DNA of 64,000 nucleotides from positions 1 through 64,000 of the IMG/VR virus record IMGVR_UViG_3300028490_000007; one strand, given 5' to 3'. Positions 86 to 25,799 of this stretch are shown here, one piece after another. Position numbers and translations under genes: made by a program. The stretch is from a virus. Within the stretch, counting starts at the first letter, position 1. The number at the start of each line of letters is the position of its first letter. The notes below the pieces were generated by a model that saw only the letters and a list, made by a program, of their open reading frames with translations, was not told the DNA's origin and made no database searches.

Positions 86-1240
86 TTAGTCTTTCACCTC
101 CGTAATCATTACTGATAACGCAGTCATTTTTGTTGTCATGTGCTTCTCATCAACAATCCAAGCATCCTTCTCATCCGGGTCACTCATAAATCTAGCTAAG
201 TTCTTCACACTTACATCAACGAAGTTACCATCTCTTTTTGCTAGAGTAAGTTTCTCTGCATCAGTAAAGGCTGTTGGGTCAATGATATCTTTCTTATTAC
301 CACCTTTTAAAGTGATAGCATAACCAGGTGCTTTAGCTTTTTTCGCCCCTAAGTTTAGCATAAGCTTCTTAACGTCATCTTTCATAGCTTTCATGTTCTT
401 CTCTTGTATTGCCCACTTCTTTACGGTGTCAACGTCTCTCGCCATATCAGGTGACAATTCAATAGTTTCGCCTGAACCAAGACAGTTATGTGCAAACTTA
501 CATATTGAACATAAGTTACCGACACGACGGTTCACGTCATTAATTGAAAACTCCATCATGTCTTTTTCTTTGTTTACAAACTGAATGTAGTCTTCAATAA
601 CACTGACGAAACTGAGTGCATCATCTTGAGCAATAAGGACTTCTTCTATCTCGAAAGGGATATGGTACTCCTGCTCTCTACCGTCATTGATTTCTATTGC
701 ATACACATAGATATCAATCTCTTCTGGCTTAATACCTTTCTTTTCTGCAATGTATTGTGCTTGCATGTTCGTCTGTCTCACCCAATAGTCATGTGGCTCA
801 GTAGGTATCGCATTTGATGTTTTCAATTCATACAGTATGTACTTTGCACCTTTTCTCTTTGACCTGTTTATGAAAGCCTTCGCTTCTTTTGACTTAATAG
901 TACCTGGGTTTGCCAAGTCTATCAATAGGTCTGGGTGAACTTGAATGAAACTAAACTCTTCTGTTCCGTGGTACTCTCCCTGCTTCTCGTAGAGTACCCC
1001 AAGTTCATCTAGGTTAGCTTCTATAACTCCTTCTGCAATATTACCTTTACGCATACGTATAAACTCTGATAATGTAGGTGGCTGTTCTCCAAAAAGAATT
1101 GGGAATGCAGCTTTCCTTGCACACCCAGATACTGTAGAAGCACCAACCTTTACATCGTGACCATCATACGTCAAACGCTCATGACTTGTTCTTGCCTGCT
1201 CTTGCAGAAAGGCGGTGAGCATTAATTCGCTGAAATTCAT
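86..1240 (-). CDS. Cas4-like PD-(D/E)xK exonuclease with Fe-S cluster cysteines
   Basis: ASTVSGCARK, HPDLLID, YELKTS, Q..MQ and C-terminal CSICKFAHNC motifs. Confidence 0.8.
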   Translation of the reverse strand: MNFSELMLTAFLQEQARTSHERLTYDGHDVKVGASTVSGCARKAAFPILFGEQPPTLSEFIRMRKGNIAEGVIEANLDELGVLYEKQGEYHGTEEFSFIQVHPDLLIDLANPGTIKSKEAKAFINRSKRKGAKYILYELKTSNAIPTEPHDYWVRQTNMQAQYIAEKKGIKPEEIDIYVYAIEINDGREQEYHIPFEIEEVLIAQDDALSFVSVIEDYIQFVNKEKDMMEFSINDVNRRVGNLCSICKFAHNCLGSGETIELSPDMARDVDTVKKWAIQEKNMKAMKDDVKKLMLNLGAKKAKAPGYAITLKGGNKKDIIDPTAFTDAEKLTLAKRDGNFVDVSVKNLARFMSDPDEKDAWIVDEKHMTTKMTALSVMITEVKD

Positions 1241-2391: not shown

Positions 2392-2846
2392 TTATCTCCC
2401 TAGATATTTTTTGCTATCAACCATGTTTACGATAGGTGACAACTTGAATAGTTCGTCAGCTCTAATAAATAAACTCTCAGAAGGACCGTCTAAACTCAGC
2501 TCTTTTTCAAGAAGAGCAAATCGCTTAAGGTACTCTGGTATTGACAGCTTTTTTAGTTTCCCGATTTACCCACAAAGGTAACTCGAATTTTAGCTTTACT
2601 TTTTAGATATTTATGTACCCATTGAGTAATACTCATATCAATTAGGTCCTCTTCTGGTATTGTGAATTCAAAAACCTCACCTGCACTATATACTGCTTTT
2701 TTACCGTCAAATGAAATGATACTACTTTGTTCTACTGTAGTTCCAACTTTGTCTGACAATACCTCCGCTAGAGTACCATTCATAAGTAGCTCAGGCTTGA
2801 TTGTAGCTGTCTTATTTTTCCCTTTTTCTACTTTAACTTTCATCAT
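2392..2846 (-). CDS. hypothetical protein (97 aa, 2553-2846) with probable -1 frameshift extension to 2392 (~151 aa)
   Basis: G GGA AAC heptamer directly before the stop; the -1 frame is open for 54 codons and ends next to the following start codon. Confidence 0.6.
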
Positions 2847-3295
2847 TTTGCTCTCCTTGGAAATTCAAATCCTCTACATCCTTTGATGCGTTGCTGTCGT
2901 GTTGTCATAGGCTCACCCTTGCTATCAGTAACAACTTTATCATACCCATCACGCAACGTCTTTGTTACATGTTCATGTTGAATGTTGATAGGGTAGACAA
3001 AATCTGACCTGTGCTTGTAATCTTTGTCTAAAGCTAATGCCTCTGCAACCTTTTGACTTACGATATAAATCTTACTGTCATCGTGTTCTGGTATCTCTCC
3101 GTATACTTCCTCCTTTATTGCAAATATATTACAGTCCATTACAGACCCCTGTAGTAGTGATGATTTCTGAACCCTAAGTAGATCCTTCCCTCTTGCCGGA
3201 CCTGCACTAAAACCAGATGCCAAGTCCTCCATGTTGTGAGGAGTGAGGTTTATAAGCTCCACTGCTCCACTCACTATGTCTTTTAAATTTAACAA
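2843..3295 (-). CDS. conserved phage hypothetical protein
   Basis: LINLTPH N-terminal motif and YIVS..VA motif, seen in a common phage protein family. Confidence 0.7.
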   Translation of the reverse strand: MLNLKDIVSGAVELINLTPHNMEDLASGFSAGPARGKDLLRVQKSSLLQGSVMDCNIFAIKEEVYGEIPEHDDSKIYIVSQKVAEALALDKDYKHRSDFVYPINIQHEHVTKTLRDGYDKVVTDSKGEPMTTRQQRIKGCRGFEFPRRAK

Positions 3296-3296
3296 A

Positions 3297-3833
3297 TCAT
3301 TTCCTTTTTGCTTCTAGGTTAACAGTGTCTATAGCACTGAGTATATGTTTCGTCTCAAAGGTACGCCATAGGCTAATACAGAATACACGCCACTTACCTT
3401 TGCCCCATTCGTATTCACGGCTCTTTCCGTATTTCTCACCCTCTTCTCTTGATAGGAATACAGAGTCTGTATGCCAGTAGGTAAATGTGTTACCGTCATT
3501 TTCTGCAAGCTCAAACATTTCCTCTGTGACTTCATCTTCATCGATGTTGTTTTCACAGTAGTCACGGATCACTTCTGGATACCATGTTCTCTCTATTTGA
3601 AATAGCCAAATAGGTTCAGACGTACCTTCTGCTCCACGAGGGCCATTCCCTTTACCTATGTGTGCTAGGCACTTCATATCAGGAACATCTACTGGATGAA
3701 CACGTTCTAGTCTGTCAAGCAAGGAACACACATCATTATTGTTTCTTGAGTCATCAGTCTCACTAAACATATGGTTTTCAAGAACTGATTTAATTTCAAG
3801 AAAAAATTCTCCCGGTATAATTACGCTTCTCAT
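3297..3833 (-). CDS. hypothetical protein
   Basis: 178 aa ORF with AAGGA RBS, tight packing. Confidence 0.7.
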   Translation of the reverse strand: MRSVIIPGEFFLEIKSVLENHMFSETDDSRNNNDVCSLLDRLERVHPVDVPDMKCLAHIGKGNGPRGAEGTSEPIWLFQIERTWYPEVIRDYCENNIDEDEVTEEMFELAENDGNTFTYWHTDSVFLSREEGEKYGKSREYEWGKGKWRVFCISLWRTFETKHILSAIDTVNLEAKRK

Positions 3834-3842
3834 TTTTATCCT

Positions 3843-4766
3843 TTATATTTTAACTACAGTTAATTTTGTATCTGTTGAAGAGAAATCAAACCCGTATTTT
3901 GTAGGGGCTTTTCCTTCTGCTATGTCTTTATATGTAACAATGTAATCTTTATTGTCTTGACTGTATACAGTTAACACCACTGCATCACCAGTTGCTTTAA
4001 ACGCCTTCATGATTGAATACGGACGTGTTAGTGTGAAATTGAAGTCAAGACGTCTCTTTCTTGTTTCATTTAAAATATCTTCCCACTCCTCAAAGAACTG
4101 TCTAACTTTTGCATCTATAGTTTTAGGGAATGTAGCCCTAGATATAGGTGCAAGTCTTGGGTCTATATATGTTTCGCCTATATCTTCCAAAGACATATTA
4201 AGCATGGTTTCACGCTTCTTTTCATACTCATACTTATCCGTAATTGATGACCATAAACCTTTCGCTTCACGAGATATCCTATTGACAAGTTCTTCTTTTG
4301 TCATTCCATATATCTCACGGTCAGTAAACTCAAGTCTGATGTTTTCAAAAGTGGTCTCTCTCATTTCTTTTGACCACGCTCCTGTATCATTTGCATATAT
4401 ATTTATGTATATTGTCTCGTACGGCATTCTAATTATAGCCCTACTAGCATCTATATATGCAGAGATTTCGGGTGTATGATATCTCCGCAACGACAACTGT
4501 CTATGCCCTGAGCCATTAGATTTCACATCACTCTCGTAGAACAGCTCCATGCATTTAGGCAGGAGCTTCTCTAGCTCACTAGCCATAACATCTGAGTAAG
4601 AGTAAGAACTTGTACCAAACCGAAGCTTGTTGTGCTCTCTACCACATCCACCACAGAATTTAAACACCTCTCCACTCTTAAAAGATACCGTCTCTCCACA
4701 CCCACACTTCTCACTACATTCACTGTCTACCGTATATTTACCTGGTTCTTTTTTTGGAAATTTCAT
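3843..4766 (-). CDS. hypothetical protein with N-terminal Zn-ribbon
   Basis: CSEKCGC...CGGCG cysteine cluster; 307 aa. Confidence 0.7.
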   Translation of the reverse strand: MKFPKKEPGKYTVDSECSEKCGCGETVSFKSGEVFKFCGGCGREHNKLRFGTSSYSYSDVMASELEKLLPKCMELFYESDVKSNGSGHRQLSLRRYHTPEISAYIDASRAIIRMPYETIYINIYANDTGAWSKEMRETTFENIRLEFTDREIYGMTKEELVNRISREAKGLWSSITDKYEYEKKRETMLNMSLEDIGETYIDPRLAPISRATFPKTIDAKVRQFFEEWEDILNETRKRRLDFNFTLTRPYSIMKAFKATGDAVVLTVYSQDNKDYIVTYKDIAEGKAPTKYGFDFSSTDTKLTVVKI

Positions 4767-4769
4767 TTA

Positions 4770-5270
4770 CTATCCTATCCCAAGATTTTTCTTGGCTTCA
4801 TCTTCCGTCCATCCTAAAAACTTCCACACACCATTATACATGGCATACATCTTATCGCTTCCAAGACACACAACTCTCTTTTCGTGTTTGTTTATAGATA
4901 GCCTATTTAGTATCTCATCAATACTATTTGTAACAGAAGGCTTATCTTCATCGTCATCTAAATCTGTAATAAGCAGTGTTCTTTCATCCCATGAGTCGAG
5001 AACAAAGCTTGCTATTTTTCTCTTGAATTTTTCGTCTAGCATAAATAGATCACCTACGTAATCTTCTTGTCCGGTAGCATAGTGATTGTGCATACACACA
5101 GGCCCGTATCCTGCATCAACAGACCTTGGGTCACTCAGACCTTTTCCACACACACTACACTTTGCTACTGCTGCTTTTCTTTTCTTTTTTATTTTAGGCT
5201 CAGGGACATCAGGTAGTTCCACTTCAAACAATACTCCCTGCCTAGTATCTTCTTCATTATCTTTTTTCAT
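4770..5270 (-). CDS. DUF6011-like Zn-finger protein
   Basis: CSVCGKGLSDPRSVDAGYGPVC matches the C..CG..L.D..S...G.GP.C pattern. Confidence 0.7.
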   Translation of the reverse strand: MKKDNEEDTRQGVLFEVELPDVPEPKIKKKRKAAVAKCSVCGKGLSDPRSVDAGYGPVCMHNHYATGQEDYVGDLFMLDEKFKRKIASFVLDSWDERTLLITDLDDDEDKPSVTNSIDEILNRLSINKHEKRVVCLGSDKMYAMYNGVWKFLGWTEDEAKKNLGIG

Positions 5271-5406
5271 TAGGAACACACTTTGCTATTGTGTTGTTGT
5301 TCTCAAAAGTTACCTCATAGTGCTCACCATTTGCACATATTGTCTGCACATAATGGTATTGTCCATACACTGAAACTGCTATCAACGCTATTAAAAAAAT
5401 CTTCAT
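5257..5406 (-). CDS. small secreted/membrane-anchored peptide (49 aa; missing from ORF track)
   Basis: MKIFLIALIAVSVYGQYHYVQTICANGEHYEVTFENNNTIAKCVPNEKR; fills the gap between neighbours, signal-peptide-like start, two Cys. Confidence 0.6.
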   Translation of the reverse strand: MKIFLIALIAVSVYGQYHYVQTICANGEHYEVTFENNNTIAKCVPNEKR

Positions 5407-5859
5407 CTATTCCTCCGGTTCTCTTTCATATACTAACTTCATGGAGTCGTCTTGCTGTAGACTCCAAAACTCATTGTCTGCCTCAACACCACCTGTGTCA
5501 AAGTTAATTATCCCTACGTCTGCTTCAAACTCACCTACTTTATATTGACTGGCAAATACATACTTTGGCGTTCCCTTCTCTATAATAATAGCAATGCGTG
5601 GCTTACTGTCATCAAACTCACGTGCAACCCATTCTGGGGACTGTCCTTCTTCCCACTCAACAGTTTCACTATAAGCATCAATCTTTTCCGTATCGATAAC
5701 TCTTGTCTGGATACACTCATATTTATTGAAAGCAGAACCATCTTCACTGATAGCTGCAATAACCTTTTTGATAGCATCCTCTTTTGACTCAGCCTCAACT
5801 TTAGCTGTATATTGAATTGTCGCCTCTTCTACTGTGTCTACATCTACTTCATATTTCAT
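5407..5859 (-). CDS. hypothetical acidic protein
   Basis: AAGGAG RBS; ATGA overlap with upstream gene. Confidence 0.7.
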   Translation of the reverse strand: MKYEVDVDTVEEATIQYTAKVEAESKEDAIKKVIAAISEDGSAFNKYECIQTRVIDTEKIDAYSETVEWEEGQSPEWVAREFDDSKPRIAIIIEKGTPKYVFASQYKVGEFEADVGIINFDTGGVEADNEFWSLQQDDSMKLVYEREPEE

Positions 5860-6182
5860 GAACATTCTCCTTTTACTACGCAAATTGACGCATCTAAACA
5901 CGCACCTAATGTTTCACCCAGCGATCTATTTGACTCCTCTACTCTGGCACTAAGATCCTCAGATGCAATTCTTCCACTAGCCTTAGATGCATTAAGCATC
6001 ACCCCTGAAGAACTAGATATGTTATCAGCCAGTTCAAAATTACCAACCATGTTTAGTGCTCTAGCTAAGTCTCTTAGATATGCAGCTTCAACCCTTAGTA
6101 TTTGCTCCATCTCAACTCTTTGAGTATGTAGATCTTTACTTGTGTCCAAAAAATCTCTATCTTCTTCTAATGTGCTTCTCAT
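5856..6182 (-). CDS. hypothetical protein
   Basis: 108 aa ORF in co-oriented cluster. Confidence 0.6.
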   Translation of the reverse strand: MRSTLEEDRDFLDTSKDLHTQRVEMEQILRVEAAYLRDLARALNMVGNFELADNISSSSGVMLNASKASGRIASEDLSARVEESNRSLGETLGACLDASICVVKGECS

Positions 6183-6345
6183 TTGTTTCCCCTTTAATTA
6201 ATACTTCAAGTGTATCTATCTTGCATGAGGTGTCACTCATAGCAAATACAACCTCTGTTTTGGTTCGCTCTTTAGGTACAGTCTTGACCATGTCCAATAA
6301 CTCACCTATAGTCTTTTCTGTGTTTTTAATGTCTTTAACTTTCAT
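6157..6345 (-). CDS. hypothetical protein
   Basis: 62 aa ORF overlapping neighbours at both ends. Confidence 0.55.
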   Translation of the reverse strand: MKVKDIKNTEKTIGELLDMVKTVPKERTKTEVVFAMSDTSCKIDTLEVLIKGETNEKHIRRR

Positions 6346-6646
6346 CTTTTTTCTTTGGTTCAGCCATTATATAATCCAAGCGTATCTTCATTGTTCTGTT
6401 CAGATCATCAGTTAATGCAGCTATGGTATCATCAGATAGTCCATCTTGAATTAACACAGGCTCGACCAATTCTTTTCCTGTCAAGTTAGTAATTTGGACA
6501 ATGACTCCACTCGCCATATATCTATCTTGAGTAAGCTTTTTTACATCACGAATGGCACTATAAATAGACATCACATCTTGTGCTTTGAACATTCTAACCT
6601 CTGCTCTTAACGCTTTAATCTCTTCTATCATTTCTCTCTCATCCAT
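6335..6646 (-). CDS. hypothetical protein
   Basis: 103 aa ORF, AGGAG RBS. Confidence 0.65.
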   Translation of the reverse strand: MDEREMIEEIKALRAEVRMFKAQDVMSIYSAIRDVKKLTQDRYMASGVIVQITNLTGKELVEPVLIQDGLSDDTIAALTDDLNRTMKIRLDYIMAEPKKKDES

Positions 6647-6655
6647 AATTGACTC

Positions 6656-6853
6656 CTACTTTCTTATTTTAAAATTATCTGGGCCATTTCCAAAATGGTC
6701 ATTGATGTTGTCCAGCTTCTCTTGTATATCTCCCACATGACAAGACATGCCAATAAGGTTTATCAAAGCCGAGGTTTCACTCTTTTTGAAGTAACCTCTT
6801 TCTACTGCATTAAATATTTTAAGCTTGTCTTTCATTGAAATCGAACCTGCCAT
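6656..6853 (-). CDS. hypothetical protein
   Basis: 65 aa, TAATG coupling to upstream gene. Confidence 0.6.
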   Translation of the reverse strand: MAGSISMKDKLKIFNAVERGYFKKSETSALINLIGMSCHVGDIQEKLDNINDHFGNGPDNFKIRK

Positions 6854-7122
6854 TACAGCTCCTTTAGTATCGTATTACAGAACAATTCAAGTTCTTTCTT
6901 TATGTATTTGATAGCCGTGTCTGTCTTCTTGAACCCCATTATTCTTGAGTCCAAAGGAAGAACATCAACATCTTCAAAGAATGATGAGATGTATATCATC
7001 TTGCCATTACCTATATCTTCAGCGGTAAATTGAAAAGCAACACCTCCAATATGTAACACCGGAGCACAGCATCTTCCGCTGTTCTGTATTGCCTCAACTT
7101 CTAATATTGTCATGTTCTCCAT
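6853..7122 (-). CDS. hypothetical protein
   Basis: 89 aa, TAATG coupling. Confidence 0.65.
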   Translation of the reverse strand: MENMTILEVEAIQNSGRCCAPVLHIGGVAFQFTAEDIGNGKMIYISSFFEDVDVLPLDSRIMGFKKTDTAIKYIKKELELFCNTILKEL

Positions 7123-7691
7123 TACAGTCCTTTTTCTGCTTCTCTAGCAGTATTGTCAAACTTCTCCCATCTCGAAGATGGAAGATTGTCCCATGACTTA
7201 TCAAGAGCCATGCGACGGTCAACAACAAGTCTAGCTCTCCACAGAAGCCTACGTGCTAGTCCAATATCATCTAGTGCTAGACTTAGGATTTTTAGACATA
7301 GACTTGCTGCTTCATCAACAGCCGTAATAAATACGTCCAGTCCTTTTTCTCCATCATAGTAATACTCCATATCCAAAACACCGTCAGCAACACCCAGCAT
7401 CTTGTCTACAGAACTCATCAGCTCCAGGTGCATGTCAATTATTGACTTGTGTGGAACGATTAAAAATCCTGCTTCTGCAAGAACAATACTTGCTGTCTCA
7501 GAAAACTTATCTACGTTTGTAGTATCTCTGCACATAACTCTTGCTGCTTGTATGTGCTCCCTTGCATGTCTTACACTAAATGAAGACTCTGCTACTGTTT
7601 GTCCTTTAGCGATTTCCTCAACATGCATATTCATTGCTGACGACGCACTTATTAGCTCACTACCTATGCTATAATTCATTGGCTCTGACAT
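7122..7691 (-). CDS. hypothetical protein
   Basis: 189 aa ORF, tight packing. Confidence 0.65.
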   Translation of the reverse strand: MSEPMNYSIGSELISASSAMNMHVEEIAKGQTVAESSFSVRHAREHIQAARVMCRDTTNVDKFSETASIVLAEAGFLIVPHKSIIDMHLELMSSVDKMLGVADGVLDMEYYYDGEKGLDVFITAVDEAASLCLKILSLALDDIGLARRLLWRARLVVDRRMALDKSWDNLPSSRWEKFDNTAREAEKGL

Positions 7692-7692
7692 T

Positions 7693-8094
7693 TTATCCCC
7701 TTTGAGATTTTTTGTATTCTTTGGTTAGCTTACTCAAAAGCTTATCGACTGCTTTTCCACCATCCATTGTAGCTGATGGTATAGTGTGCGGTATACCAAG
7801 TATTTTATGCTGTATGTTATTTACTGACGCACCATATGTTTGTTCATTAGGATAGTTCCATTGACCATCCTCCCAAATACGAACACTCTCTCTGTCATAA
7901 CATGCTATGATCCATGGGTCTTCTGTTACAATAGATTTCACATACTGTCTATAGTTTATGCGTTCAAACATAGACATAGCCTGCTCTGGATACCATACTA
8001 GGTCATGTCTTGACTCAGCTATCTTGTGCCATGTTCCTGCTTGTGGGAGAACGTAACATACGCCTTCCAATTCGAGTTCTTGTTTCTTTTCCAT
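7693..8094 (-). CDS. hypothetical protein resembling the C-terminal part of ABC/AAA_21-type ATPases
   Basis: AGGAG RBS before MEKKQ; IVTEDPWII..YDRESVRI...TYGASVNNIQHKILG. Confidence 0.6.
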   Translation of the reverse strand: MEKKQELELEGVCYVLPQAGTWHKIAESRHDLVWYPEQAMSMFERINYRQYVKSIVTEDPWIIACYDRESVRIWEDGQWNYPNEQTYGASVNNIQHKILGIPHTIPSATMDGGKAVDKLLSKLTKEYKKSQRG

Positions 8095-8172
8095 TTTTTC
8101 TCCTAATATATATTGTCTCCGCTTCATGTAATACTTAACTATGAAACGCAATCTAAAAAAAATACAACCACC

Positions 8173-8216
8173 TGCCCAGTACAGACAAGACGGTTAAGTC
8201 TCATCTGCACTGGGCA
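8173..8216 (-). terminator. long stem-loop followed by a U-rich tract (terminator/attenuator-like)
   Basis: Minus strand TGCCCAGTGCAGATGAGAC..GTCTTGTCTGTACTGGGCA, fully paired only with G-U on the minus strand, then GGTGGTTGTATTTTTTTT. Confidence 0.55.
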
Positions 8217-8397
8217 ATAATGGATGCTGGTTTAATGCCCTTAGCTGGGCTGTACACTTCGTCCACGTCACAGTATGGCTCGCCGCATGTGTACCCGTCT
8301 GATCACTGATTACAGTTAGTGAACCCACTTACCTAAGTCTTCCGACAGGATTTAGTTTTTGTTACCATGATGGTATTTTGTTTTTGATAGCCGGCTA

Positions 8398-8475
8398 TTA
8401 TATAGCTCTATCTTTTATTAAGGTTTGGTGGGTTGCCCACAAGTTTCGTATATGGATCTTTTCACGGACCTGCAT
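8398..8475 (-). CDS. small peptide (25 aa)
   Basis: AAGGAGGT RBS then MQVREKIHIRNLWATHQTLIKDRAI. Confidence 0.5.
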   Translation of the reverse strand: MQVREKIHIRNLWATHQTLIKDRAI

Positions 8476-8490
8476 ATTACCTCCTTTTAT

Positions 8491-8667
8491 TTAGTTGAGT
8501 TCCCAGAACTCTTGTTTTGCTACCTCAAGGGCAGCATTGTTTTGGAGAGTTACACTGTGGTTATCCCACTTGACTCTTCCTTTTTTGTCCTGTATCTTTC
8601 TGATTAGAAATCCTGCATCAGGTGCAGAAATTTCCAATAAGACTTGCTTCTTGTATCTAAGTTCCAT
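8491..8667 (-). CDS. small hypothetical protein (58 aa)
   Basis: MELRYKKQVLLEISAP..., AAGGG upstream. Confidence 0.55.
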   Translation of the reverse strand: MELRYKKQVLLEISAPDAGFLIRKIQDKKGRVKWDNHSVTLQNNAALEVAKQEFWELN

Positions 8668-8669
8668 TG

Positions 8670-8759
8670 CTACCCTTTCAGATAAGTGACTGTATGCCAA
8701 TCACGAGTTGACCAAGAACAACAAGTGCTCCTGATACCTTTATGCCTACAATAAGACAT
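8670..8759 (-). CDS. possible small Cys-containing peptide (29 aa)
   Basis: MSYCRHKGIRSTCCSWSTRDWHTVTYLKG; GGAGG lies very close to the ATG, so weak. Confidence 0.3.
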   Translation of the reverse strand: MSYCRHKGIRSTCCSWSTRDWHTVTYLKG

Positions 8760-8789
8760 GCCTCCATCTTGTCCATTACTTTGTCAGGA

Positions 8790-8936
8790 TTAAATACTTG
8801 CAAAATTCCAGCCTCCGAATAATGATGACATGACGTCTTCAGTATTAACGTGTCTAATAACGCCATCTTCATCCGACATTAACACTCTGCCCCAAATATC
8901 TAAACCACCGTAAAGGTTATTATCTTTCTCAAACAT
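8790..8936 (-). CDS. small hypothetical protein (48 aa; missing from ORF track)
   Basis: GGAGGT RBS then MFEKDNNLYGGLDIWGRVLMSDEDGVIRHVNTEDVMSSLFGGWNFASI. Confidence 0.6.
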   Translation of the reverse strand: MFEKDNNLYGGLDIWGRVLMSDEDGVIRHVNTEDVMSSLFGGWNFASI

Positions 8937-8949
8937 TTTGTACCTCCGT

Positions 8950-10465
8950 ACTGTAGCCCAACGCTTAGGTGCTACGTGATCAAAATTTTCGTACTAGACA
9001 GTCGATCAGTTCTGTCCGCCTTTTCTTTTTCGCTTTAAGGTAGCTATTCTTTTCAAGTTTCAATGCCTATACAAAAATTGCAATAGACTCGCTTCTGCGT
9101 GAAAGACAACCGCCAGTTATAAGGCTCAGGGTGAGCACAAACGCCTCCTGCAAGCAGGTTTGACTTCCGGGGACTTCCGGCTATTACGAGCCTTCTCTAT
9201 CGGCAGACTATGTATAAGCCACTAAGAGAACACTTCCTACAATCTGTAGGCTACCTCACTCATAGACAGTGGGGTTATGTATAAAACACAACAATCAATA
9301 TTCCGTGGAATACTCATTGTTACGATTTACATTTATTATGTAATCGCAACTGAAACCTTAATCGCTACCCCGTAGTAAGGGTCATTGCGATCTCGGTCCT
9401 CGTTGCTTCCCGGTTTTTAAAACCGAGTACAAAAATTGTACCCGGTTCGTTTCCGGGACAACGGTCATACAGAAATCATTGCATGTGAAAGGTATGACAA
9501 CCTCACATGCTCTACCCTACTACGTTCACCGATTGAGTGAAACAGGGTTGGCAAGCCTAAGCTCACCGGTTAGCTTTCTTTGTCAATAGTAGCTATACTA
9601 TTAAGAAGCCGGGAAATGACCCAGCCTCAAAACTTGTTTTTTTACAACCCACAAGTAACGTGATGGCGGTTTTTTAACGTGGTTTCTCACGCTGATTTTT
9701 ACGTCTTATCTGACGGGACGGTTCTCTTCTTACCGACAACGGGGTCTCACCCAGTCCTTCGTTTTCACACCAAACAGGTAACGGCTACGTTTAACGCCCA
9801 GCTAGGCAACGAAATCATCAAAGCTCCAATAAGCTCTCATGGTCTCGCCCTCCGTAGAGGACCGGTTTGATTACCGAGTTAATGACCACAATCTTATGCG
9901 TCAAGACCTTCTCGGTTGCAGAGCACAGAATTCACTGTGTTGACTTCGCATGCGTCTTGCACATGCTTCCCAAGACTTTGCTCTTCAGCTTGGGGTTCTG
10001 GTTCGTCTGGTAGCTACCCAGACTCTGATCTTCACCTCTCGTGCTAACGATAGGCTATCTTCCACGACATTGCTGTCTGAAGCCCTTACACACCGACATG
10101 TGTAAGCATATTAAATCGGCTATTGTTCAGCGTTGCTAATCCCTGCCGGAGAAGTAGCTGCTTTATCCAGGTTCACTGGTTCTGGCGTGTATATATTCCT
10201 ACTGTACACCAGAAGTGTGGAGTTGACATAACCCACAATAGCTCGTTTTCCCGTAACCGGATTGGTGGTAGCACACCGTGTTGTACCCTTTATGGAATAC
10301 ATGTTCATTCAAGAGACTATGCCGCCTCACTCGAACCAGGTCTCAACCTGTAGTGTTGTTCTGTTTCAACACATCTAGCCATCACAGGCAATACAGTGTA
10401 AATCATCCAACGATGACTTAGTGCTGTATTCAATGGACTTGTATACCGCCCATTGAGAGCGGTTT
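8950..10465 (-). ncRNA. candidate large structured non-coding RNA / structured leader (~1.5 kb)
   Basis: No credible ORF; dozens of adjacent inverted repeats; most plus-strand A-C mismatches become G-U pairs on the minus strand; UACG and GCAA tetraloops on the minus strand. Confidence 0.65.
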
Positions 10466-10470
10466 TATGA

Positions 10471-10608
10471 CTATCCTAGCTCACAAGCTACTCCGGGGTT
10501 GGAGTCAAGCATTCGATTAAATCTTTCGATCCAATTCTTCTGCTCAAGAGTAAGCTGCTTAGCTGGTATGGCCATCATTTTTTTAAAGTTTTGTAACGTA
10601 TATTTCAT
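10471..10608 (-). CDS. small hypothetical protein (45 aa; missing from ORF track)
   Basis: GGAGGT RBS then MKYTLQNFKKMMAIPAKQLTLEQKNWIERFNRMLDSNPGVACELG. Confidence 0.6.
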   Translation of the reverse strand: MKYTLQNFKKMMAIPAKQLTLEQKNWIERFNRMLDSNPGVACELG

Positions 10609-10702
10609 AACACACCTCCATTATTTTGTGTGGCGATACTTGTTTCCAGAGTATCTGAACCCATATAAATGCAATACTTAGCTATCTACTTAGGGAAATT
10701 GT

Positions 10703-10752
10703 AAGATATATTCTCCTACATAGTATATACCCGAAAAACGGCCATTTTTACA
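10703..10752 (-). promoter_or_regulatory. conserved promoter-like motif, copy 1
   Basis: TGTAAAAA-N11-CGGGTATATACTATGTAGGAGAATATATCTT; 30/31 nt identical to copy 2. Confidence 0.7.
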
Positions 10753-10757
10753 CCTTT

Positions 10758-10785
10758 TTAGGGCTATTTAGGGCTATTTTAGGGG
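10758..10785. repeat. short tandem repeat TTAGGGCTAT (x2 plus a partial copy)
   Basis: ttagggctat ttagggctat tttagggg. Confidence 0.5.
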
Positions 10786-10801
10786 CAATATACAGAAGCA
10801 A

Positions 10802-11095
10802 CTACGGCTTATTAAGCTGTACTGTGCCTCTTTCTATGCTGTATAGGAGCCATTTCTCGTATTTAACGTCACGAGAATTGAACTCCTTACGGTTTGGGAA
10901 GTCAGTTTTGATGTCCAATCGTCTACAAAAGTAAACTGTATCAAGCATCTCACGCTGTATGGCGTCAGCATTAGACTCTCCTGTCTCAGGATTTCTATCC
11001 TCAAGACCATGCTGAATAGCCTTGCCTATCGCCTGCTGAACTTCAGCTAGTTCAGCGGCTAGACGAGATAAGTCGTGCTGTGTAATGTCCATCAT
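10802..11095 (-). CDS. MazG-like nucleotide pyrophosphohydrolase
   Basis: LAAELAEVQQAIGKAIQHG...IQREMLD; ExxE...ExxD pattern. Confidence 0.55.
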   Translation of the reverse strand: MMDITQHDLSRLAAELAEVQQAIGKAIQHGLEDRNPETGESNADAIQREMLDTVYFCRRLDIKTDFPNRKEFNSRDVKYEKWLLYSIERGTVQLNKP

Positions 11096-11439
11096 ACGAA
11101 CATCCTTCTGCAGTAGCTTCTTACCTCACGGTTTATGACGTAGCTTCTATATGAAGCGTTTATCATTGAACCGAGATATGCAGACATGATATATGTTGCA
11201 CCGAAGTACGACAACATATCTGTCATATTCTCAGGAGTTAACAGTATTAACGTCCCAAGAAATACAAGTTCAGCACCTATACGAGCTATACTCATACGGG
11301 TAACTATCCTACTTGCAAACCCAATAAGGGCAAACGTAGCTATTGCTACATACCCTGCGTTTGCAACAGGGAAGATATAGTATCCCAATGCCATAATAAG
11401 GGCTACGGCTGAGCCACCCAAATACATTCTATTATTCAT
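11092..11439 (-). CDS. small multi-pass membrane protein
   Basis: about four hydrophobic segments; AAGGAGGT RBS. Confidence 0.7.
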   Translation of the reverse strand: MNNRMYLGGSAVALIMALGYYIFPVANAGYVAIATFALIGFASRIVTRMSIARIGAELVFLGTLILLTPENMTDMLSYFGATYIMSAYLGSMINASYRSYVINREVRSYCRRMFV

Positions 11440-11546
11440 AATAACCTCCTTGGTTATATAGTCATCAAACGATGTCTCTATGTGCTATAGTCTAATCCCT
11501 ATACTATTTTTTTCTTAGATATAGTATGAGTGATTGACACAAAGAG

Positions 11547-11596
11547 AAGATATAATCTCCTACATAGTATATACCCGTTTTCTGTCGGTTTTTACA
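11547..11596 (-). promoter_or_regulatory. conserved promoter-like motif, copy 2
   Basis: TGTAAAAA-N11-CGGGTATATACTATGTAGGAGATTATATCTT. Confidence 0.7.
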
Positions 11597-11659
11597 GTTG
11601 TTTGGAATGGTGTTTCTGGGGGATAAGACAGAGCTGAGAAGCTCTATCTGGAAGGTGGG

Positions 11660-12741: not shown

Positions 12742-12830
12742 AGATGGTTGTCTGAGCGGTTTAAAGAGCTTCCCTGCTAAGGAAGTGTGGGCCTGTCTCA
12801 CCGAAGGTTCAAATCCTTCACCATCTGCCA
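12742..12830 (+). tRNA. tRNA-Ser(GCT) with encoded CCA
   Basis: acceptor AGATGGT/ACCATCT, anticodon arm CTTCC-CTGCTAA-GGAAG, long variable arm, T arm GAAGG-TTCAAAT-CCTTC, G discriminator + CCA. Confidence 0.95.
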
Positions 12831-24056: not shown

Positions 24057-25799
24057 ATGGATGCACTAAGAGAACTCAACAAGCTTATGCCAAGCGACGT
24101 ACAGTTTACTGGTGCAGACATGCCTTTAACTAAGGCATCTATAATGCCGAAGTTAACACAATTCGCTTCCAAACACCCTTCCCTCTACGCACAAAAGATA
24201 CACAAAATACGTGAACTCGGAGAAGAGCTTGCCTACTTAAATGGTCACAACATGGGACCAAAAGATTTAACATATTCAAACCAAAAAGATATTGATAAGC
24301 TTCTGTCCACCGAAGATGCTAAGGTTCGTAAGATGAGCCCAGAAAAAGCAAAGACGCATCTTATCAATGTATTTAATCAAGTCCAGAACATAGTTATGAA
24401 AAACAAGGATAACAACCTAGTGTCTCAGGCTGCTTCTAAGGGAAGAGGTAATCCTGCCACAGCTTCAAGGATTGGAGCAGGAGTTGTATATGCAGTAGAT
24501 ATGAATTCAGAGCCCTACCCCTTTATGATAAAGAACAGTTTATCTACAGGACTAAATGCTCATGAGCAATATGTATCTGGAGGACAAGCAAGATATGCTG
24601 CCGTTCAAGCAGCCGTATCTACTTCTGAACCAGGAGCAATGGGCAAGGTTCTTATTGCAAATACCGAAGACCTAAAGATCGCAGAAAAAGATTGTGGGAC
24701 AAGAAACGGTATCATGGTTCCGGTTATGGGGAATGATGCTATATCAAGATATGAAGCAGGAACGAACAAACTTGTAGATGAGCAATATCTAAAATCCTTG
24801 AGAGCAAGAGGCAAGCGTAAGATTAAAGTCCGATCACCAATAACTTGCAAGTCAAGACATGGCGTGTGCTCAATGTGTATGGGAAAAAATTCTAACGGCA
24901 ATCTTCCAACAGTAGGTCACAATGTTGGGATAGAGGCTGCTCAATCTATGTCTGAAAAAGCAATACAGCTCATTCTTAGTGCAAAGCATAATGTCGCAGG
25001 TAAGACAGCTTCTCATATTCCTACAGGATTTCAGGCAGCCAAGATACTGCTAAACTCGACAGAGAAATTCAAAGGGAAGGCGGCTGTATCCTCTATTGGT
25101 GGAAATGTCAAGTCTATACACAAGCTTACTACTGGTGGGTACAATATCAACATATCGGGAGTAGACCACTTTACTTCACAGCATGTTTCCCCGAAGGTTA
25201 CAGTTGGGTCAGTGGTAGACAAGGGAGATATCTTAACTAATGGTATCGCCTCTACAAAAGATATTCTATCCCACAGAGGCGTATTAGAAGCCAGAAAGTA
25301 TTTGTCTGACGAGTTGGACAAAGTGCATGGTGGCTCCATAGACAAGAGAAACTTTGAAGTTGTAAGTAGAGGGTATCTAAACCTCGTTAAACCGATGAGC
25401 GATAAGTCTCATGGCAATATGAAAACATTTGACGAATTTGTTCCAACTATAAATGGAACACATATGAAAATGATGAACACATCAGACAAGCAAATAACTA
25501 AAAAATTCTTAGCTGAACCGGCTCTGCATTTTAGCCCAGGTAAACAAATTACAAAAACAGTGGCTGGCTATTTAAAGAAAAATGGGGTAAAATCCGTTAA
25601 GGTTTCTCATACTCCTCTTGATTACACACCTGTATTCAAGACGTATGAGCAGAGACCTCTATTCAATAAGTCTATGTGGCAACAGATAAACTATAGAGGC
25701 ATCAAGAAGGGACTCACTGATGGACTACTGTCCGGAGGTGAAGAGGATCTTAATCATATAAAGTCTGATAGAGCCCGTTTCGCTCTAGGCATACTATAA
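24057..25799 (+). CDS. DNA-directed RNA polymerase beta' subunit, C-terminal (RpoC2-like) half
   Basis: bridge helix GLNAHEQYVSGGQARYAAVQAAVSTSEPG, Zn site DCGT...VRSPITC....GVCSMC, trigger loop AAQSMSEKAIQLILSAKH, IDKRNFEVV; no NADFDGD. Confidence 0.9.
   Translation: MDALRELNKLMPSDVQFTGADMPLTKASIMPKLTQFASKHPSLYAQKIHKIRELGEELAYLNGHNMGPKDLTYSNQKDIDKLLSTEDAKVRKMSPEKAKTHLINVFNQVQNIVMKNKDNNLVSQAASKGRGNPATASRIGAGVVYAVDMNSEPYPFMIKNSLSTGLNAHEQYVSGGQARYAAVQAAVSTSEPGAMGKVLIANTEDLKIAEKDCGTRNGIMVPVMGNDAISRYEAGTNKLVDEQYLKSLRARGKRKIKVRSPITCKSRHGVCSMCMGKNSNGNLPTVGHNVGIEAAQSMSEKAIQLILSAKHNVAGKTASHIPTGFQAAKILLNSTEKFKGKAAVSSIGGNVKSIHKLTTGGYNINISGVDHFTSQHVSPKVTVGSVVDKGDILTNGIASTKDILSHRGVLEARKYLSDELDKVHGGSIDKRNFEVVSRGYLNLVKPMSDKSHGNMKTFDEFVPTINGTHMKMMNTSDKQITKKFLAEPALHFSPGKQITKTVAGYLKKNGVKSVKVSHTPLDYTPVFKTYEQRPLFNKSMWQQINYRGIKKGLTDGLLSGGEEDLNHIKSDRARFALGIL

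Follow-up and report, generated by a model that had tools for sequence, protein, structure and literature searches.

A gene-free 1.5-kb tract in an uncultured jumbo phage as the probable source of a new modular structured RNA

Large phage RNAs of the GOLLD and ROOL type are among the least understood RNAs in biology. GOLLD, a large structured non-coding RNA, occurs in phages and prophages and has no known role; many of its members are longer than 800 nt and lie near tRNA islands, and the RNA is split into a conserved 3' and a variable 5' part. ROOL, also found in phages and prophages, is an ornate, many-helix RNA for which neither a protein partner nor a role is known; symmetric kissing loops with palindromic loop sequences serve its assembly. 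Here we describe a locus in an IMG/VR virus record (G000; 77 kb, estimated to be 41% complete), the first 64 kb of which form the window. A first-pass annotation of the window had singled out a hairpin-dense tract of approximately 1.5 kb as a candidate giant phage RNA or structured leader. We put a probability of roughly 60% on this tract (8937-10470) being the gene, or the non-coding body, of a new modular structured RNA made from the minus strand within a small operon.

To compare the locus with known RNA families, we scanned the whole window with Rfam cmscan at the gathering score, and the locus, both in G000 (8700-10900) and in G002, a related phage genome, at E values up to 10. Only noise was returned in either phage (SraC, SmY, SNORA70 and P1). 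The covariance model of GOLLD (RF01998) had no match up to E 10 in G000 and G002, nor did that of ROOL (RF03087) up to the same value. The group I intron model (Intron_gpI) was also without a match up to E 10, and the tract does not lie inside a gene; for group II introns, no Rfam intron model matched, and the tract is flanked by distinct ORFs that each have a stop, a ribosome-binding site and a start of their own. Hammerhead, twister, HDV-like and other small ribozymes gave no match up to E 10 in 8700-10900 and the G002 locus, and the riboswitch, T-box and leader models of Rfam gave none either. Since no Rfam model matched at any threshold tried, membership of GOLLD, ROOL, the introns or the ribozymes fails at this first test.

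Among the genes of the phage itself is one for the C-terminal half of RNA polymerase beta' as a stand-alone protein (24057-25799; Pfam RNA_pol_Rpb1_5). By this fragment, the closest cultured phages are 187-kb Vibrio phages and Salmonella phage Arash; as identity to them is only approximately 30%, G000 represents an uncultured jumbo-phage lineage. The relatives G002 and G003 were brought in through alignment of the beta' fragment with that of a first relative, G001. Public sequencing runs with pieces of the tract are labelled as hydrothermal-vent metagenomes and metatranscriptomes, each containing only 6-7% of the sampled words. Elsewhere in the window, a 384-aa protein (86-1240, minus strand) with homologues in G001 and G002 matches phrog_1706, annotated as "CRISPR/Cas system associated" (E 1.5e-5). 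A tRNA-Ser(GCU) with a long variable arm (12742-12830) is located where the early minus-strand gene block and the plus-strand block diverge, in the intergenic region that separates them; it is the only tRNA, 2.3 kb from the tract and on the opposite strand.

The tract contains no ORF longer than 63 aa (start to stop) on either strand, and none of TGA, TAG or TAA reassignment opens a frame across it. It lies in the sole ORF-free gap longer than 1 kb of the 77-kb record, in line with its first description as the only long gap in a gene-dense genome. Its raised GC content, previously judged from single lines of sequence, is borne out by 1.5-kb windows: at 0.454 versus 0.401 +/- 0.015, the tract tops all 756 windows and is 3.5 SD above the genome mean. 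Stop-to-stop pieces of the tract gave no signal against Pfam and PHROGs, and the sense and antisense ORFs of the corresponding G002 tract have no family match in either collection. A pseudogene was rejected for want of a protein-family trace in any frame in these two collections. Relative to G002, and likewise to a vent relative, indels in the tract are not multiples of three.

G002 is a complete genome of 187,664 bp with terminal repeats, its beta' is 76% identical to that of G000, and it is syntenic with the minus-strand block of the window. At the same place, between the homologues of the small genes ORF45 and ORF48, it has a tract of 1455 nt without a sense-strand ORF longer than 60 aa, so that absence of coding, position and length are all conserved. 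This tract is also the GC maximum of its genome in 1.5-kb windows (0.467 versus 0.402 +/- 0.017). Five collinear blocks, A to E, totalling approximately 620 nt, are common to both phages, all on the minus strand of G000: blocks A (10212-10105) and B (9985-9919) are 70-73% identical to G002, block C (9914-9893) 91%, block D (9871-9784) 80% and block E (9273-8937) 80% (G002 180520-180856). By comparison, four micro-genes of the unit and a MazG-like gene have nucleotide identities of 55-62%. Within the unit, the RNA blocks are hence better conserved than anything except the promoter region (10660-10785, minus strand; 90% identical to G002 178698-178825) and the terminator region (84% identical to G002 181336-181435). 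Outside the blocks the two tracts diverge. The variable 5' part (10213-10470, minus strand; 258 nt) cannot be aligned with its 377-nt counterpart, approximately 250 nt between blocks B and C of G002 are absent from G000, and the junction of blocks D and E holds 510 nt in G000, while in G002 block D abuts block E. Less than half of the tract is conserved between the two phages, and the initial picture of a "giant" RNA does not hold as first put, in that the 1.5 kb are not uniformly conserved: what is kept is approximately 620 nt in five blocks, and the rest is lineage-specific insertion or unalignable.

Antisense to the G002 tract, a 158-aa ORF with a GTG start (179719-180195, minus strand) has an odd composition and belongs to no family. 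Its tblastn match on G000 crosses three stops and is mere nucleotide similarity; it is likely a false gene call on an RNA locus. Between the common promoter and the ORF45 homologue, G002 additionally encodes a membrane protein of approximately 90 aa (178847-179149), the gene for which is absent from G000.

In the more distant relatives G001 (beta' 58% identical) and G003 (65%; only 52% complete), the tract is absent from the syntenic place and protein genes are found there instead; all that these phages retain of it is a short hairpin motif. The tract is therefore dispensable for this phage group. Searches for further carriers added none. A blastn search of the tract against GenBank phages gave no match, a search via the MazG-like protein found only distant loci, none with a similar tract, and searches via the 152-aa and 307-aa neighbour proteins found nothing. 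A scan for further tracts with a mixed R/Y DNA pattern was equally empty, and two further DNA patterns, run against viral contigs and genome contigs, returned G002 only or nothing. Besides G002, a 19-mer match pointed to another genome, G004, but lies inside a gene of an unrelated phage of 54% GC and was dismissed as chance. The tract is known from two genomes only, G000 and G002.

The surrounding block of approximately 8 kb (3297-11600), consisting of ORFan early genes, has no counterpart in G001, in which only approximately 1.8 kb separate the endolysin gene from the homologue of G000 2843-3295. The block is a hypervariable accessory region. Such a setting, with other genes at the same place in G001, raises the alternative that the tract is what remains of acquired genes or a mobile element in decay, without function and kept only by recent common descent; the large lineage-specific indels, the unalignable larger half and a raised GC content that could mean foreign origin are all compatible with this. 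However, decay does not explain why the blocks are more similar than neighbouring genes that are under selection, or why the compensatory changes described below exceed those in shuffled controls. In addition, there is no protein-family trace in any frame, stop codons in G000 interrupt the antisense ORF of G002, and 1.5 kb of junk is rarely kept by phage genomes, all of which makes a remnant improbable.

Every one of the inverted repeats that had been listed for the tract is present in the sequence, and the minimum free energy (MFE) fold of the minus strand has 46 hairpins. The tract folds better than shuffled controls: the whole minus strand reaches -532 kcal/mol compared to -439.6 +/- 11.1 for the shuffles (z -8.3), and the plus strand -451 kcal/mol (z -5.7). 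Three coding controls of equal length gave z-scores of -1.4, -4.2 and -4.7; given these and the plus-strand score, only the minus-strand value stands out. The same asymmetry is seen in 150-nt windows across the 64 kb, with a mean z-score on the minus strand of -1.98 in the tract versus -0.39 elsewhere (Mann-Whitney p 0.005) and no difference on the plus strand (p 0.17). The tract is the best-folding stretch on the minus strand of the window. Its strongest folding signal, at 9300-9620, falls inside a segment that is absent from G002; local z-scores in the G002 tract are ordinary, and the insert private to G002 has a z-score of -1.5. The "hairpin-dense" look of the tract in G000 thus owes much to its private 510-nt insert. 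The tetraloops reported for the minus strand are present in the MFE fold (C-UACG-G at 9862-9847 and a GCAA loop at 10077-10066), but the UACG tetraloop is not conserved and reads UCAU in G002. A suggested concatemer of repeated modules finds no counterpart in the sequence, as the tract has no internal repeat families beyond short chance matches. A CsrA-type sponge was ruled out, because GGA motifs are not enriched.

Evidence that structure has been maintained comes from comparison with G002. For blocks A and B, RNAalifold predicts 62 pairs, none of which is broken and 18 of which are changed on both sides between the two sequences. In column shuffles that keep the conservation pattern, double changes average 8.5 with a maximum of 15, none of 150 shuffles reaches 18, and the consensus fold has a z-score of -7.7 relative to such shuffles. 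The consensus fold and its compensatory pairs support a conserved structured core composed of blocks A and B and their spacer (9915-10212, minus strand). A fold computed from G000 alone is a less circular test than the consensus fold; here, G002 keeps 63 of 86 pairs, 16 of them by double changes, compared to 23-39 pairs when the partner is slid by 1-3 columns. In one hairpin (9966-9948), both partners have changed in 5 of 7 pairs, yet the CAAGA loop is unaltered. Blocks C and D (9784-9914) have three compensatory pairs and a consensus z-score of -6.0 on the minus strand versus -2.3 on the plus strand. Pairs kept by compensatory substitutions, the generic mark of a structured non-coding RNA, are hence present, on two sequences only; with two genomes, covariation has no proper statistic, and a pairwise alignment can flatter structure.

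In each of the three alignments, the minus strand has the lower consensus energy, and promoter, ribosome-binding sites and terminator are all on that strand as well, so that G-U pairs, consensus energies and expression signals agree. The earlier proposal of selection for RNA structure on the minus strand is accordingly upheld, within two genomes, by compensatory changes relative to the homologue and by the lower consensus energy there. This strand preference also bears on the idea that the tract works as DNA, i.e., as a replication origin, packaging site or protein-binding region, with its hairpins acting as cruciforms or operators. Perfect palindromes would suit such an element, for example the one of 18 nt at 9583-9600, as would the word GTAGCTA, 3 of whose 9 copies in the 77-kb genome fall in the tract (plus-strand starts 9040, 9589 and 10010). 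On the other hand, G-U pairs clearly favour folding of one strand, the tract lies inside a transcription unit, and we found neither iterons nor AT-rich unwinding elements in what is the most GC-rich stretch of the genome. We consider a DNA-level element very improbable. As to the GTAGCTA copies themselves, one lies in a 7-nt hairpin loop, one centres the 18-nt perfect palindrome, and one, also kept in G002, is unpaired in block E; it is possible that they are symmetric kissing sites.

The main reading, a structured RNA from the minus strand, places the tract in a compact transcription unit. A promoter-like core motif, TGTAAAAA-N11-CGGGTATATACTATGTAGGAGA (about 10760-10712, minus strand, with the duplicated motif placed at 10732-10712), occurs as two exact copies in the window, the second of which (11576-11556, minus strand) is ahead of the neighbouring upstream unit encoding a 115-aa hydrophobic protein and the MazG-like pyrophosphohydrolase; G000 and G002 have only two copies each. 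From promoter to terminator the order is ORF45, the tract, ORF48, a hydrophobic micro-ORF, ORF58/69 and approximately 270 nt more. ORF45 (10471-10608) has a GGAGGT ribosome-binding site and is 40% identical over 35 aa to its G002 homologue (179249-179401), ORF48 (8790-8936) has a weak homologue there (180857-181006; 26% over 42 aa), and the hydrophobic micro-gene of approximately 38 aa (8678-8794) is 53% identical to G002 181011-181127. ORF58 (8491-8667; 58 aa, ending ...EFWEL) is 48-49% identical to G002 181137-181322; it becomes 69 aa if a TTG start at 8700 is used, and a homologue is visible in G001. All four micro-genes are on the minus strand, and none has a Pfam or PHROG family. ORF48 and the hydrophobic peptide gene overlap out of frame, and the overlap is the same in G002. 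The unit ends at an intrinsic terminator (8155-8216, minus strand) with a hairpin of approximately 20 bp followed by a U run; the 150-nt window containing it (8101-8250) has the lowest minus-strand z-score of all such windows in the 64 kb (-7.7). Small flanking ORFs with GGAGGT ribosome-binding sites and a duplicated promoter motif, as first described, are therefore real features of the locus. Between ORF58 and the terminator, 38 different letters connect 8208 with 8496 in a vent relative (run X1), and in G002 only approximately 14 nt lead from the ORF58 homologue to the terminator region. G000 therefore has an extra segment of approximately 280 nt at 8209-8495, in which a 25-codon ORF has a strong AAGGAGGT ribosome-binding site (8474-8397).

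A short hairpin motif recurs in the operon and its relatives. In G000 it forms the last 23 nt of block D (9785-9807, minus strand), reading (U)GCC-UAGCUG-GGC(G), then UUAAACGUAGC; in general form, it consists of a GC stem with an AGCU-containing loop, followed by UWAAAC..AGC (UUAAAC..AGC in block D). A second copy (8226-8250, minus strand) is directly ahead of the terminator. Further copies are found on the sense strand of the operon in G002 (180495-180517 and 181328-181351), G001 (102577-102599 and 103497-103522) and G003 (530-508). By regular expression, the second copy has an equivalent place ahead of the final terminator in G000, G002 and G001, with 0 matches in control sequences, and the closing pair covaries among the four related phages (U-G, A-U and C-G). 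Stops of protein genes immediately precede the motif in G001 and G003. Its placement suggests that the motif marks the 3' ends of cistrons or RNAs in the operon, and it may signal an RNA 3' end, processing or protein binding. If it does mark 3' ends, blocks A-D would behave as an RNA cistron and block E as the leader of the next genes.

Block E differs from the core in several respects. Relative to G002, it has 18 gap columns, including indels of 4, 3, 2 and 1 nt, which identifies it as non-coding; its consensus fold has a z-score of only -2.0, and changed pairs are kept at approximately chance rate. Hairpins with covariation are present at 9250-9236, at 9088-9065 and at 8951-8940, the last of which presents the ribosome-binding site of ORF48: the GGAG sits in the loop of a 4-bp hairpin with two compensatory pairs (GUAC/GUAC in G000, ACAC/GUGU in G002). 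Block E (337 nt) is conserved right up to this ribosome-binding site and the start codon. We considered that the whole tract might be a cis-acting intercistronic leader that controls ORF48, the hydrophobic peptide and ORF58 at the level of translation, processing or stability, with no role as a free RNA. Conservation of block E to the start codon, the hairpin kept by two compensatory pairs and the co-orientation of the tract with the ORFs inside one promoter-terminator unit are what such a leader would look like. However, 1.5 kb is disproportionate for a 48-aa protein that is only 26% conserved, the start codon is 850-1270 nt downstream of the best covariation, and the gene-end hairpin motif separates blocks A-D from block E. 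A leader function for the entire tract is unlikely in our view, while block E would, at least in part, serve as a leader for the downstream micro-genes. The tract may or may not have the antitermination-leader role that was first suggested.

The insert specific to G000 (9274-9783, minus strand; 510 nt) is the most stably folded part of the tract, reaching -177.3 kcal/mol on its own (z -7.1), and no second copy exists in G000, G001 or G002. Could it be mobile? Of all the parts of the tract, the insert is the likeliest candidate for a self-splicing intron or another ORF-less mobile ribozyme, being discrete, very stable, present in one phage and absent from the other, and placed precisely behind the conserved hairpin motif; a gene for an HNH endonuclease is found at a distance of 2.4 kb. 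Yet no ribozyme or intron model matches up to E 10, the insert interrupts no gene, and a second copy is absent from three genomes, so that we give this explanation hardly any credit. Metatranscriptome contigs from two runs of two studies, near-identical and of approximately 150 nt, cover 9392-9545 and 9462-9613, both within the insert. The contigs are strandless; they fit transcription of the tract but may stem from DNA.

How could the modules of a structured RNA work together? The transcription unit would extend from its dedicated promoter (about 10760-10712) to the intrinsic terminator (8216-8155) and include the four conserved micro-genes. Within it, the RNA would begin with the variable 5' part, followed by a base-paired core of blocks A-D (10212-9784) that closes with the GC hairpin motif. 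In G000, a self-contained, hairpin-rich expansion of 510 nt (9783-9274) would come next, and the putative 3' module, block E (337 nt), conserved but weakly paired, would run into the hairpin-held ribosome-binding site. By analogy with what is supposed for GOLLD and ROOL, the core may act as an RNA itself, as a scaffold, decoy or sponge during infection, and it appears to occupy the slot that protein cistrons have in the more distant relatives. We tentatively extend this to a more specific and, as a whole, doubtful proposal, in which blocks A-D are a new phage-RNA family in a cistron slot, co-transcribed with the micro-genes, ended by the motif, released as a stable RNA, grown by insertion and acting in trans on the host. 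Such action might take the form of a decoy against an RNA-sensing defence or of a scaffold together with the neighbouring micro-proteins.

Compared to described systems, the tract resembles GOLLD in the split between a conserved 3' and a variable 5' part; it differs in being a locus of 1.45-1.53 kb within an operon of micro-genes. Like ROOL, it has palindromic UAGCUA/AGCU words that recur in loops and in a conserved unpaired stretch, but size and architecture are different, palindromes are only modestly enriched, and G002 keeps no more than one UAGCUA. With riboswitches, T-boxes and ribosomal-protein leaders it shares an end at a ribosome-binding site in a conserved hairpin, reminiscent of expression platforms, whereas it is several times longer than known mRNA leaders and the helices with the best support lie a long way from the start codon. 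Gene callers place false antisense ORFs on such loci, as exemplified by the 158-aa ORF of G002. Each new unrelated family offers another handle on the role of large phage RNAs, and in this case the conserved micro-proteins and the locus's own promoter, terminator and recurring gene-end hairpin provide concrete partners and boundaries to test. Set against the other large phage RNAs, the tract is longer, combines conserved blocks with swappable expansion domains, and resides in an operon with conserved micro-proteins.
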